A DNA stretch of 64,000 nt. Source: a virus (taxonomy: Duplodnaviria; Caudoviricetes). The notes beneath the pieces are model-generated. The model did not search any database, was not told where the DNA came from, and was given only the letters and a program-made list of their open reading frames with translations. The first letter of the stretch is position 1; each line of letters begins with the position of its first letter. The position numbers and the translations under genes are program-made. This document shows positions 30,718-42,306 of this stretch, piece by piece. Location: the IMG/VR virus record IMGVR_UViG_3300025723_000013; one strand, written 5' to 3'.

Positions 30718-33700
30718 TTATCCAAACACAGTATCTAAACTGTTGGTGGCTGTGTTAAAGTACTGATACACTGCACTGGTGTTAGTAACGCTTGATACCC
30801 AGTGTATGGCATTGCCTACATATAAAGCGCCTCCGATGCCCACACCACCTACCACTGTTAATGCGCCCGAATTGGTCGAGATGCTGGTCAGAGTGCTCAA
30901 TACTTGCACTGCGGCTGTGGTACTGGTTGACAGCAATAACATATCAACTGTGCTAGTAGATCCATTGAGCACAAAGTGCAAGTTGTTGTTATTGTAGGTA
31001 CCAATAGTTAAGTCGCTGCCTACTGATTCCAAGAAGCTGGCACCGGGCAAGCTGAAGCTGTTGTTGGCATATCCAGCAGCTGAATAGCTGTAGTTGGTGC
31101 TGTTAACACCCATTTCCATGTACGTGGTATAGCCATTGTTGGCCACTTCATAGCTGGCATAGGCGGTGTTGGCACTGTTGTTGTTAATTAAAACAACATT
31201 GCTATATGTGTTGTCGTTGCCGGCAAATGTGGCTATTTGTCCTGTAAATGTATTAACATAAATGCCAACATTCAATGCTCCGGCTGTGCTTGGGGTGTTT
31301 GATTGATAGGCAATATTGACGTTGCCTCCTACGCCCACTCCGCCTGAAACCTGTAAAGCTCCTGTAACAGTTGAGATCGAAGTCGCGGTATTGGTCAATG
31401 TCAATATGCTAGAGAACGGATTGGTTATTCCGCCACTTGCGCCACTGGACCCGGTGTATCCCGAAGCTGTGCTGGCTGAACCCACATATCCCTGAACGCC
31501 CAGTGTTGATGCCAGTTGCCATCCATTTGAAGAATTATCATATACAAATGTGGCCTGAATGCTCTTGACATTTAATAATATGTTTTGATTGAGGCCATTT
31601 ATATTATTGCCGTTGTTGTTTATAGTTAAATTGTTGTTAGCCCAACTAGAGCCATCCATCACCACCACAAATGAGCCCGTAGTGGGCGAGGCGGGCAAGG
31701 TCAGCGTAAATGCTCCGCCTGAAGTATCCGCAATGTATGACGTGTTGATAGTGGCCGTTGTCGCGGAAGTTATTCTTACATAATTTAGATAGCCGGAACT
31801 TCCTATAAATCCAATGCTGCCTGTATATCCGGTTGATCCTGTATATCCCGTTGATCCAACAAATCCAACAGATCCCACAAATCCTGTGGAACCCACTGAT
31901 CCGGTATATCCAACGGATCCTGTAAATCCAATGGTACCTGTGGAACCACCTGATCCTGTATATCCAACTGATCCTAGATAACCAACAGATCCGGTATAGC
32001 CTGGGATTTGGCTAGCTGCTCCTACGCTACCAATGTAACCAACGGATCCAAGATAACCGATAGATCCGGTATAGCCAATGGATCCGATATAGCCAGCGGA
32101 TCCTGTATAGCCAATGGATCCGGTATAGCCAATGGATCCCGCATATCCAACCGATCCTGTATATCCTGATGCAGTGCTAGCAGATCCGACGTATCCAATA
32201 CTGCCTGTGAATCCAACAGAGCCAGTATAACCGATGCTGCCTGCATATCCAATACTGCCTGCATATCCAATACTGCCTGTGAATCCTGTTGACCCTATAA
32301 ATCCAGTGGTACCTGTAGAACCCACTGAGCCAATATAACCCGTTGATCCAACAAACCCAGTAGTGCCTGTGGAACCCACTGATCCTATAAATCCAACGGA
32401 TCCTGTAAATCCAATGGTACCTGTGGAACCCACTGAGCCAATATAACCCGTTGATCCAACAAATCCAGTGGTACCTGTGGAACCCACTGATCCTACAAAA
32501 CCAGTAGTGCCTGTTGACCCACTGGATCCGGTGTACCCTGTTGATCCAACGAACCCAGTAGTACCTGTGGAACCCACTGAGCCTATAAATCCAGTTGATC
32601 CTGTAAAGCCAGTGGTACCTGTGGAACCCACTGATCCTGTGTATCCAATTGATCCTACAAAACCAGTGGTACCTGTGGAACCCACCGATCCTGTGTATCC
32701 GATACTACCAACAAATCCAGTGGTACCTGTGGAACCCACTGATCCTACGAATCCAGTGGTACCTGTGGAACCCACTGATCCTACGAATCCAACGGATCCT
32801 GTAAATCCAATGGTACCTGTGGAACCCACTGACCCTACGAATCCAGTGGTACCTGTGGAACCCACTGATCCTACGAATCCAACTGATCCTGTAAATCCAA
32901 TGGTACCTGTGGAACCCACTGATCCTACGAATCCAGTGGTACCTGTGGAACCCACTGATCCTACGAATCCAACGGATCCTGTAAATCCAATGGTACCTGT
33001 GGAACCCACTGATCCTACGAATCCAGTTGATCCTACGAATCCAATTGATCCTGTAAATCCGATTGTGCCAGTAGAACCCACTGATCCTACGAATCCAGTG
33101 GTACCTGTGGAACCCACCGATCCTGTGTATCCGATACTACCAACAAACCCAGTAGTACCTGTGGAACCCACTGATCCTACAAATCCAGTGGTACCTGTGG
33201 AACCCACTGATCCTACGAATCCAACTGATCCAACAAATCCAGTGGTACCTGTGGAACCCACTGATCCTACAAATCCAATGGTACCGGTGGAACCCACTGA
33301 TCCTGTGTATCCGATACTCCCAACAAACCCAGTAGTGCCAGTAGAACCCACTGATCCAATATATCCGATACTGCCTGTGAATCCGATTGAACCAGCAAAC
33401 CCAGTGGACCCGGTATAACCAGTGGACCCGGTATAACCAGTGGACCCAATATATCCCGGAACTTGGCTAGCTGCTCCTACACTACCAGTATAGCCAATAG
33501 ATCCGTTATAGCCAATGGATCCTGCATATCCTGTGGATCCAACAAATCCAACATTACCGATTGATCCGGTATAGCCGACGTACCCAACGGATCCTGAATA
33601 GCCAGCACTTCCAATATACCCAGTTGAACCTGTATAGCCAGTTGAACCTGTATAGCCAGGCTGTATACTAGCTGAACCAATATATCCTATCGGACCAAGT

Positions 33701-40900: not shown

Positions 40901-42306
40901 CCTGATGCAGTGCTGGCAGATCCGGTGTATCCGGCACTGCCTGTGAATCCAACGGAGCCGGTATAACCAATGCTGCCTGAATAGCCAACGGATCCTGCAT
41001 ATCCAATACTGCCTGTGAATCCAACGGAGCCGGTATAACCGATGCTGCCTGCATAGCCAACGGATCCTGCATATCCAATACTGCCTGTGAATCCAAAGGA
41101 TCCATTGTAGCCAATATTACCAGTCGATCCAACAAACCCTGCTGATCCTATATATCCAATAGATCCCACAAATCCTGTGGTACCCGTGGAACCAACATAA
41201 CCAACTGATCCAAAATATCCAACCGATCCGATATATCCCGTTGATCCGGTATATCCAGTGGATCCGGTATAGCCAATGCTACCACTATATCCAATACTAC
41301 CCACAAATCCAGTAGTGCCCGTAGATCCCACTGATCCGATATATCCGTAGCTTCCGATATATCCGATTGATCCTGTATATCCTGATGCAGTGCTAGCAGA
41401 TCCAGTGTACCCGTATGACCCCACAAAGCCAATGCTTCCCAAAAATCCAGTGGTTCCAACGGATCCGGTGTAGCCAACGGATCCGGTATAGCCAACGGAT
41501 CCTACATATCCAATATTGCCTGCCGAACCAAGATATCCAACGGCTCCTATTGAACCTATGTATCCAGCTGAACCGGTATAGCCAATACTGCCAACATAAC
41601 CGATTGATCCTGCAAATCCAGTGGTACCAGTGGAACCGCCAGACCCAGTATATCCTGTTGATCCAGTGTAACCACGACTTCCTGTGTATCCATTTGGCGG
41701 GCCTTGGCTACCCACATACCCACTTGCGGTGCTGGCCGATCCAGTATAACCAAATACTGCAACGTCGGTGCTAAAAAAAGGACCTGTAATATCTACCCAC
41801 CAGGTGCCGTCATCGTCAGTAACATATTCGTACAATGCGCCGTTGGTGTTATTGTACCAATGATCTCCATTTTGGAATACAGTAGTAGGAGGATTTGACT
41901 TGTAATAGCCAGGCAATGATCCTTCGTAATAATTTGGAATTCTGTAGCTGGGTCTGCCACCTATGTTAATAAACGAACTTACTGTGTTTGTAAATGTCAT
42001 GGATCCAGTAATTGATACCAAATTGGTTATCAAACTGATTGTGCCCGATGATGTGCTCACAATAAGTGTAATTGTGTTTAATGATGAAATATTTGGAGTT
42101 ATGACGCCGGTATTAAAGGCCAAATTGCCTAGACTGTTTGTGAATATTGTTCCAGTAGCAGATGATACCAGTGTATAACCAGTACTGGTTGTGGGACTCA
42201 ATCCTAAATTGGGCTGTGCATTGCTTAGGTCCAAAAATTGATTTCTTGTTGGACTTAATCGACTGGCAGGTGTGACCAATATACGGCCACTGGTTAAATT
42301 AGGCAT
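37975..42306 (-). CDS. Collagen-like long tail fibre 2 with C-terminal intramolecular chaperone (peptidase S74)
   Basis: About 1030 aa Gly-X-Y; [45 protein letters not shown] (37975-38268). Confidence 0.85.
38645..41755 (-). repeat. Collagen-like repeat region of fibre 2 (GYTGSx then GATGAT/GPT block)
   Basis: Gly-X-Y periodicity; GAT/GPT/GAS block at ~38845-39335. Confidence 0.9.

Follow-up and report, generated by a model that had tools for sequence, protein, structure and literature searches.

Collagen-like Gly-X-Y stalks have been described in several phage and bacterial proteins. The E. coli O157:H7 prophage side-tail proteins EPclA and EPclB are collagen-like, and EPclA was shown to form a trimer and a triple helix (Ghosh et al. 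2012; PMC3368898). Among the T4-like phages, Prochlorococcus phage P-SSM2 contains a candidate tail-fibre gene, orf028, nearly half of which encodes Gly-X-Y (Sullivan et al. 2005; PMC1079782, where 'bacteriophage collagen' is cited from Smith et al. 1998). The glycosylation of BclA provides a precedent for a sugar-stabilised prokaryotic collagen (reviewed in PMC8968730), and Lys-Glu/Asp salt bridges, concentrated near interruptions, have been proposed as the shared code by which long, interrupted collagens fold and are stabilised across all domains of life and viruses (Nat Commun 2025; PMC11923368). Here we describe two giant collagen-like fibre genes, A and B, in a 64,000-nucleotide stretch of the virus record IMGVR_UViG_3300025723_000013 (Duplodnaviria; Caudoviricetes), referred to as the window. 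The best explanation overall is that A and B are homotrimeric collagen-like fibres of a jumbo T4-like myovirus with triple-helical shafts, to which we assign a probability of about 0.78. Sequence, domain and synteny data all lend good support to the collagen-fibre assignment, and from them we infer trimer formation, the triple helix itself, a hinge role for its interruptions, the attachment point and a binding function. The two genes and their collagen tracts are as follows.

30718..35589, minus strand: fibre gene A, 1623 amino acids (aa) (open reading frame (ORF); Pfam Collagen E 2e-104; PHROG tail-fibre families)
31786..34770, minus strand: collagen-like tract of A, residues 274-1268, 995 aa, with 123 hexads, 16 G6G breaks, 0 charged residues and 6 Pro
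37975..42306, minus strand: fibre gene B, 1443 aa (ORF; Pfam Collagen E 6e-103; PHROG)
39346..41751, minus strand: hexad-type collagen of B, residues 186-987, with 21 G6G breaks
38638..39345, minus strand: second collagen chemistry of B (GAT/GPT/GAS), BclA-like and largely unbroken, residues 988-1223 (match to BclA, PDB 1WCK, E 5e-6)

Both proteins match Pfam Collagen (PF01391) with scores of 341.7 bits (A) and 337 bits (B) against a cut-off of 27.2, and contain 324 and 312 in-register Gly-X-Y triplets, respectively. The longest unbroken run, 142 triplets in A, cannot arise by chance. The collagen of B spans residues 186-1223 (1038 aa) overall, the last ~235 residues being of the BclA-like type. 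G[YF]xGSx hexads (123 in A, 113 in B) make up ~75% of each tract. The X positions of A are occupied by Ser (47%) in alternation with Tyr or Phe (together 39%), and the Y positions by Thr (38%), Val (24%), Ile (16%) and Ala (11%). Proline is limited to 6 residues (0.6%) in the tract of A and 17 (1.6%) in that of B, and the charged residues Asp, Glu, Lys and Arg to 0 in A (none over residues 256-1271) and 3 in B, with no KGE or KGD triplet in either tract. Both therefore fall short of the usual collagen stabilisers (high imino acid content, KGE/KGD charged pairs), which are typical of collagens rather than strictly defining, and the unusual feature of A and B is that proline and charge are both lacking. 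The original prediction, made from the sequence alone, was of two collagen-type fibres of about 1000 Gly-X-Y residues each, built on a GYTGSx hexad with aromatic residues at alternate X sites, Thr common at Y and negligible proline. The tract lengths, triplet numbers, composition counts, Pfam Collagen matches and location in a fibre module all agree with it. The accompanying label 'hydroxyproline-independent' is true but not distinctive, since it holds for all bacterial and phage collagens. Computed at 0.286 nm per residue, the tracts would, if triple-helical, measure ~285 nm (A) and ~297 nm (B), as long as fibrillar collagen.

In their general plan A and B resemble EPclA and EPclB, phage tail-fibre proteins in which a Gly-X-Y stalk lies between globular trimerisation and binding domains, giving a dumbbell with a hinged stalk. 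They differ in having tracts of ~1000 residues that are uncharged and near-proline-free, an aromatic/Ser hexad, 16-21 copies of a G6G interruption, and S74 or XD1 domains at the ends. EPcl stalks are far shorter, and richer in proline and charge. P-SSM2 is likewise a T4-like phage with a Gly-X-Y fibre candidate, and a 2557-aa fibre and an oxygenase of the window have cyanophage relatives, but neither the hexad nor the G6G module is reported for P-SSM2 and other T4-like cyanophage candidates (PMC1079782). BclA (PDB 1WCK) shares Thr at Y, and residues 988-1223 of B are GAT/GPT-like and match it in sequence. By contrast, BclA is a spore protein with proline-rich X positions and a C1q-like head, whereas A and B are mostly hexad rather than GPT and have no C1q-like domain by Pfam, which places them outside the BclA-type class. 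The proteins analysed in PMC11923368, the GnG nomenclature of which also suits A and B, are bacterial and viral collagen-like domains that are similarly long and much interrupted. In contrast to the salt-bridge code, A has 0 charged residues over 995 residues with 16 interruptions, and would thus be a natural exception to this code if it forms a triple helix.

The hexad is not confined to the window. A word-seeded search with B returned 536 proteins at E 1e-10 or better, and 74 of the best 120 of these 536 matches are hexad-type (defined as at least 30 G[YF]xGSx hexads), many of them with an S74 domain or a T7 tail-fibre N-terminus. A and B share the features of this class, with at least 30 hexads, low proline, aromatic/Ser alternation at X and the G6G module. 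A full-text literature search for the motif and for phage collagen yielded no description of the class, and A and B, as charge-free members, stand at the extreme of a hexad-type class of phage collagen fibres that is widespread but seemingly undescribed.

The G6G breaks number 16 in the main tract of A, with one more at A residue 1370, and 21 in B; their sequences include SASTAS, SASTAT, SASTVS, AASQVP, AASQIP, SASSVP, PISTTP and similar. Each is a 4-residue insertion after a complete hexad that keeps the hexad phase, and 37 copies in the window match a module of the class G-[S/N]-[A/D]-S-T-[V/A]-x-G. An aromatic triplet precedes the break-bearing G-S in 27 of 30 window breaks and follows the break in all 30. 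The relatives contain 79 G6G breaks, distributed over 30 of the 74 hexad proteins, with the same consensus (Ser3 in 79/79, Thr4 in 70/79); here the aromatic triplet is found before the break in 63/79 and after it in 42/79, and Pro follows in 37/79. KGE or KGD flanks none of the 109 breaks of window and relatives combined. To judge from this conservation, the G6G break is a conserved module of the fibre class and not a product of random decay. That the helix is repeatedly broken by the same 6-residue spacer had been predicted, and this point stands, given the 16 and 21 breaks in A and B, the conservation in 30 other proteins and the aromatic flanks. The spacing, by contrast, is clustered and not 'regular' as stated: 12 breaks of A lie at 16-, 22- or 24-residue spacing within residues 385-613, and this jointed zone is followed by long rods without breaks, including the 142-triplet rod at residues 712-1134.

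At the DNA level, the collagen-coding regions are a patchwork of frame-preserving tandem repeats of 18-252 bp with 57-96% identity, as counted in the metagenomic assembly alone. The repeat periods vary, yet all keep the frame, and glycine periodicity is the sole constant. Blocks of 100-160 bp with 87-89% identity are common to A and B (31.3-34.3 kb versus 39.0-41.2 kb). The tracts therefore expand, contract and exchange by recombination. A contains a 186-bp unit in 3.1 copies with 96% identity; together with the common blocks, this near-identical unit points to A and B having recently expanded and exchanged sequence with each other. ORFs on the opposite strand or off-frame within the repeats (e.g. 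32468-33418, plus strand) were considered and rejected as by-products of the Gly-X-Y coding repeat.

The domains flanking the collagen provide a second line of evidence for trimeric fibres. In B these are the following.

41752..42306, minus strand: N-terminal anchor domain, B residues 1-185 (identity to a relative)
38269..38637, minus strand: small (~120-residue) distal domain, B residues 1224-1346, putative fibre tip after chaperone release (from its position between collagen and S74)
37978..38268, minus strand: Peptidase_S74 intramolecular chaperone, B residues 1347-1443 (Pfam PF13884, 53.4 bits versus a cut-off of 22)

The Pfam S74 match spans residues 1347-1407 and starts with S-D-Q-R-L-K, in which a Ser and a Lys lie five residues apart and presumably act as the Ser...Lys dyad of the domain. 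The S74 region also matches the long-tail-fibre distal subunit of PDB 6F45 (S16 gp37 chaperone region, E 1e-4). The anchor belongs to no Pfam family, and is 57% identical over residues 1-182 to a syntenic gene on two IMG/VR contigs (L001 and L002). The product of this gene (P0003) is a B orthologue (52% identical) that keeps the anchor, the GYTGSx collagen and S74. Having a C-terminal S74 domain, a position in the tail/baseplate module and conserved synteny, B can be assigned to the S74-fibre class. In the B orthologue of the closest relative, the hexads contain Gln, Arg and Asp and there are few G6G breaks; the loss of charge and gain of breaks are therefore recent in the window lineage.

The ends of A are of a different type.

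35062..35589, minus strand: N-terminal shaft with repeated 'T-G-A-L-x-V-x-G-G-x-G-I-G-G', A residues 1-176, probable attachment end (read from the sequence)
34771..35061, minus strand: first XD1-type beta-sandwich (T4 gp9 / CBA120 TSP4 XD1), directly before the collagen, A residues 177-273 (similarity to the second copy)
31501..31785, minus strand: second XD1-type domain, directly after the collagen, A residues 1269-1363 (phmmer against PDB)
30721..31500, minus strand: short collagen stub with one G6G break, then a ~235-aa distal head, presumed receptor-binding, A residues 1364-1623 (sequence)

The motif of the N-terminal shaft recurs many times in the syntenic A homologue P0004 of contig L002, and the A N-terminus otherwise gives only weak matches, to Pelagibacter and Leptospira phages. 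The second XD1-type domain matches residues 96-188 of CBA120 TSP4-N (PDB 7RFV/7REJ/7RFO, E 1e-6), a region that forms XD1, a beta-sandwich that is trimeric and shares its fold with the middle domain of T4 gp9 (PMC8825819). It also gives a weak Pfam match to StcE_b-sandwich, and is 57% identical to the first copy (E 8e-37). Pfam detects no S74 domain in A. The AlphaFold2 (AF2) monomer model of the A C-terminus has a pLDDT of 35 and is not usable, and Atlas feature searches with the A head and the B anchor returned only viral clusters without names, with scores below or at the chance-prone range. Each chain would thus bring its own trimerisation domains, S74 in B and two XD1-type domains in A. 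The XD1 domain of CBA120 TSP4-N, like T4 gp9, and the S74 domain (endosialidase type, S16 gp37) are trimeric modules of baseplate-attached fibres, as proposed here for A and B, although in A and B they flank collagen rather than beta-helical shafts. An arrangement with two XD1 copies bracketing collagen was not found described in the literature searched.

The position of the two genes points in the same direction. The fibre neighbourhood, located between gp15 and the head genes, comprises a gp9/10-like gene, a 2557-aa fibre and a LamG protein; the operon containing B is headed by the 2557-aa fibre gene, with a 128-aa gene also upstream of B, and the LamG-domain protein lies downstream of the A/B region.

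42698-50371, minus strand: 2557-aa fibre protein, which heads the operon containing B
37112..37975, minus strand: 287-aa protein with a T4 gp9/gp10 N-terminal-like domain, candidate adaptor (Pfam PF07880 E 1e-5; PHROGs)
35705..37108, minus strand: 467-aa protein of no family between the fibre genes (ORF, Pfam, PHROG; syntenic 423-aa gene in L002)

Contig L002 has its genes in the same succession (2474 aa / B-like / 277 aa / 423 aa / A-like), and its 277-aa gene is the syntenic counterpart of the 287-aa gp9/10-like protein, a protein for which a pattern search of IMG/VR gave no relative. From the trimeric end domains, the position and the synteny it follows that A and B are probably homotrimeric, baseplate-associated collagen-like fibres. 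They could instead be decoration filaments (sheath or neck whiskers, 'hairs') that are collagen-like but serve in sensing or anti-aggregation and not in receptor binding. The B anchor matches no known family, the phage has the separate 2557-aa fibre and other fibre-like genes, and relatives such as CBB bear hair-like tail decorations, all of which would be compatible with such a role. We nevertheless consider it improbable, given that S74 and gp9/XD1 domains are characteristic of fibres and spikes attached to the baseplate, that the genes are grouped with gp9/10-like and tail-fibre genes, and that both proteins have distinct, adhesin-like distal domains.

In the proposed mechanism, A and B would be expressed late as structural proteins, each chain forming a homotrimer with a collagen triple-helical shaft of ~285-297 nm. 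In B, the C-terminal S74 domain would nucleate the trimer, from which the helix would zip towards the N-terminus, and S74 would then cut itself off, exposing the small distal binding domain. In A, the two gp9/XD1-type trimeric beta-sandwiches would clamp the ends of the collagen, leaving the ~235-aa head as the distal end. The shaft would consist of the hexad (Gly-Tyr/Phe-Thr/Val/Ile)(Gly-Ser-x), free of proline and charge, and the helix would therefore have to be held by beta-branched or hydroxyl residues, an aromatic stripe or added sugars. If the triple helix forms, the remaining options for its stabilisation are the beta-branched/hydroxyl Y residues, the alternating Tyr/Phe stripe, the end clamps and sugars. 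The aromatic-flanked G-S-A-S-T-(A/V)-x-G insertion is most likely a local hinge, which would give a jointed proximal part joined to stiff rods, and as very long tethers the fibres would extend the capture radius of the phage.

Several points weigh against this proposal. Aromatic residues are among the least favourable for collagen in host-guest peptide studies. The jointed zone has just 4-6 triplets between breaks, which is short for a stable proline-free helix. Imino acids and Lys-Asp/Glu salt bridges, the usual stabilisers (PMC11923368), are lacking in the tracts. The triple helix is a prediction from sequence, as is the point of fibre attachment on the virion, and the A and B repeat counts are those of the assembly. 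Lastly, the AF2 single-chain model of the jointed zone (A 378-640) is beta-rich.

This model bears on the alternative that the Gly-X-Y tracts, or at least the jointed zones of 22-residue period, form a beta-solenoid or a polyglycine-II/polyproline-II (PPII) bundle (cf. snow-flea antifreeze protein, gp38 adhesin), in which case the fibres would be much shorter. Its best version (pLDDT 58, pTM 0.58) has regular 6-residue strands with an 11-residue period, and six triplets plus a 4-residue linker fit the hairpin geometry of a PPII bundle; the absence of all known triple-helix stabilisers from the tracts also suits this alternative. The other four models are poor, however (pLDDT 28-45), no triple helix can form from one chain, and spurious solenoids are a common outcome with repeats. 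A solenoid needs one coil length, whereas the repeat period differs along the protein (12, 18, 22, 24 and 30 residues). A PPII bundle is difficult to reconcile with the 142-triplet run, which contains no linker, and bulky Tyr, Phe, Val or Ile in every triplet are ill-suited to Gly-packed bundles. With trimeric end domains that suit a triple helix, the solenoid or bundle is very improbable, and the triple-helical fibre remains the preferred interpretation.

If A and B are triple-helical, they bear on how collagen is stabilised. Existing accounts involve imino acids, hydroxyproline or glycosylated threonine, and Lys-Asp/Glu salt bridges, and A, B and their family lack the first and the third. 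A triple helix would in that case imply a new minimal collagen chemistry, of relevance to collagen biophysics and to recombinant biomaterials as an uncharged material that needs no hydroxylase and is tyrosine-rich and hence cross-linkable; as phage tethers, the fibres would be twice the length of the T4 long tail fibres. A stronger version of this idea is that the hexad is a self-sufficient new route to a stable triple helix hundreds of nm long, through an aromatic/hydroxyl ladder that dispenses with proline, hydroxyproline and salt bridges, with the G-S-A-S-T-(A/V)-x-G insertion as a programmed hinge or sugar site, copied or deleted to tune flexibility, and with A and B as a natural exception to the salt-bridge code. 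It is possible, but we regard it as doubtful.

Modification of the shafts is the other option, and two enzymes in the window are relevant to it.

962..2494, minus strand: GT17 + GT2-like glycosyltransferase (GT), candidate fibre modifier (Pfam)
25408..26022, minus strand: 204-aa 2OG-Fe(II) oxygenase (Pfam PF13640)

It had been predicted that the fibres, the glycosyltransferase and a prolyl-4-hydroxylase (P4H)-like enzyme form one modified-collagen system, the helix being stabilised by Ser/Thr O-glycosylation and hydroxylation. Both genes are indeed present, and the C-terminal domain of the GT is related to fibre-adjacent multi-GTs; against this, the oxygenase has few substrate sites and the GT lies 28 kb away, and the combined system is unlikely. 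Its parts differ in strength. Glycosylation of the A and B shafts, in which Ser+Thr amount to 32-35% of residues, is plausible, although slightly short of an even chance. BclA-type collagens are glycosylated (PMC8968730), and virion glycosylation is known in mycobacteriophages (Freeman et al. 2023, as cited in PMC12619734). Among hexad-fibre loci, a GT4-GT2 enzyme (with or without an FkbM methyltransferase) is encoded within ~1 kb of the fibre in 4 of 7 loci sampled on long contigs, 3 of them head-to-head. Conversely, a collagen-like ORF is found at 8 of 12 IMG/VR loci of the GT4-GT2 enzyme with at least 8 kb of upstream flank, and is directly adjacent in 5. In contig G003, two giant (GSS/GTS)n collagen genes lie beside two GT genes. 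These adjacency loci are phylogenetically related, and the counts are not independent. If sugars are needed for the helix, this would point to widespread virion glycosylation in large aquatic and soil phages.

Whether the 962-2494 enzyme would be the glycosylating agent is a separate matter, and one on which we are rather sceptical. Its C-terminal domain shares 34% identity (E 9e-31) with an internal domain of a fibre-adjacent 1498-aa multi-GT and 45% with the corresponding domain of a 1578-aa multi-GT from the closest relative. That one domain aside, it has no similarity to the fibre-adjacent GT4-GT2 core: BLASTP against three fibre-adjacent GTs gave no significant match, kinship being seen with the fourth enzyme alone, and tblastn of the four against the window, where no multi-GT lies within ~1 kb of a fibre, finds only the C-terminal domain of the 962-2494 gene. 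The multi-domain GT4-GT2(-FkbM) enzymes of uncultured T4-like phages stand beside the same hexad fibres and have one domain in common with the window GT, whereas the latter is a GT17 fusion that is not fibre-adjacent and lies outside the late module, 28 kb away at the end of a gene run that includes helicase, RecA-like and gp32-like genes, and without a late motif. GT17 homologues in the closest relative, in contig G003 and in Synechococcus phages are found in general sugar-nucleotide clusters.

A role of the oxygenase in stabilising the A and B helices has no support. Its gene lies just 5 kb from A, but X-Pro-Gly sites number 3 per chain in A and 4 in B, all inside break variants, and the closest solved relatives of the enzyme are PKHD/PiuC-type hydroxylases (PDB), so that the pairing of a P4H-type oxygenase with an X-Pro-Gly-rich substrate, as in a collagen prolyl-4-hydroxylase system, is not seen here. 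The family is widespread (361 phage records, mostly cyanophages, with pelagiphages in addition). Of two cultured phages checked, S-B05 and HTVC023P, neither gives a Pfam Collagen match, and the latter encodes the oxygenase. The enzyme was not found in three related but incomplete contigs (G001-G003).

Several related loci show further combinations of such genes. Contig G003, listed also as L023 (IMG/VR 3300032214_000986, 62-80 kb), encodes adjacent 1329- and 1713-aa proteins of almost pure (Gly-Ser-Ser/Gly-Thr-Ser)n; these adjoin a 575-aa GT2-type gene, a 706-aa GT4-type gene and small Pro-Thr-rich proteins, and a GT17 homologue is present in a GDP-sugar cluster of the same contig. The closest relative (L033, IMG/VR 3300013093_000017) encodes at 1296-6032 the 1578-aa enzyme, composed of two GT4 domains, a GT2 domain, the domain of the window GT and an Anp1-like domain, and has a separate cluster with two GT34 genes, dehydratases/epimerases, an aminotransferase and a GT17 gene; this lineage carries a large glycan-building gene set. 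In the 356-kb contig of NCBI GCA_902725615.1 (L031), a hexad-type 1445-aa fibre is followed by the 1498-aa GT4-GT2-methyltransferase fusion. This huge phage also has a PhyH-type 2OG oxygenase beside gp15, a fibre/gp15/oxygenase layout that resembles the window. The L031 and window oxygenases gave no match by tblastn and thus belong to different families. The tail-gene region of Pelagibacter phage HTVC023P (L003, 34-48 kb) includes four genes annotated as 2OG-Fe(II) oxygenase or 'ferrochelatase', which lie 2 kb from a protein one domain of which resembles the XD1-type node of A. Where phage oxygenases are encoded in structural modules, their virion targets may be something other than collagen.

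The phage origin of the window, also part of the original prediction, is supported; its major capsid protein shares 68-70% identity with the counterparts in the jumbo phages Phosso, Vibrio 2.275.O, GAP32 and CBB. The window encodes a T4-type set comprising a gp23-like capsid protein, a gp20-like portal, large terminase, sheath, gp15, and RecA/UvsX-like and gp32-like proteins, and has no match to cultured phages at the DNA level; its source is an uncultured jumbo T4-like myovirus. With the inter-fibre region, the B anchor and a collagen segment as queries, blastn and tblastn against cultured phages gave nothing, the collagen segment probably being masked for low complexity, and A and B were not found by exact look-up in the protein collection. 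The ends of the 2557-aa fibre are 41-48% identical to tail-fibre and baseplate proteins of the marine cyanomyoviruses P-SSM2, S-SRM01 and S-PM2. The fibre module looks mosaic in that this protein is cyanophage-like and the capsid is closest to the Rak2/GAP32-like jumbo phages.

A late-promoter-like AATAAATA is present at 35629-35636 upstream of A, which thus has its own motif; AATAAATA also precedes the B-containing operon and several other structural genes. The T4 late promoter TATAAATA is not enriched in the window, where sigma-70 and terminator scans likewise gave sites no more numerous than in shuffles. The looser WATAAATA is not above chance in total, yet for 10 of the 12 copies the position is a short gap immediately before a gene, with the motif oriented as the gene is (8595, 14129, 22302, 28496, 35629, 50468, 52657, 54031, 54238 and 58778). 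This is weak evidence for WATAAATA as a candidate late-promoter core of the phage.

Two other structural genes of the window are unusual. An intein that includes an HNH endonuclease domain splits the T4-type portal gene (993 aa, 58791-61772, minus strand; Pfam Portal_T4, Intein_splicing, HNH_3). The tail-sheath protein (17357-20716, minus strand) is unusually long at 1119 aa, with the sheath-family match limited to the C-terminal ~100 residues, which suggests large inserted decoration domains.

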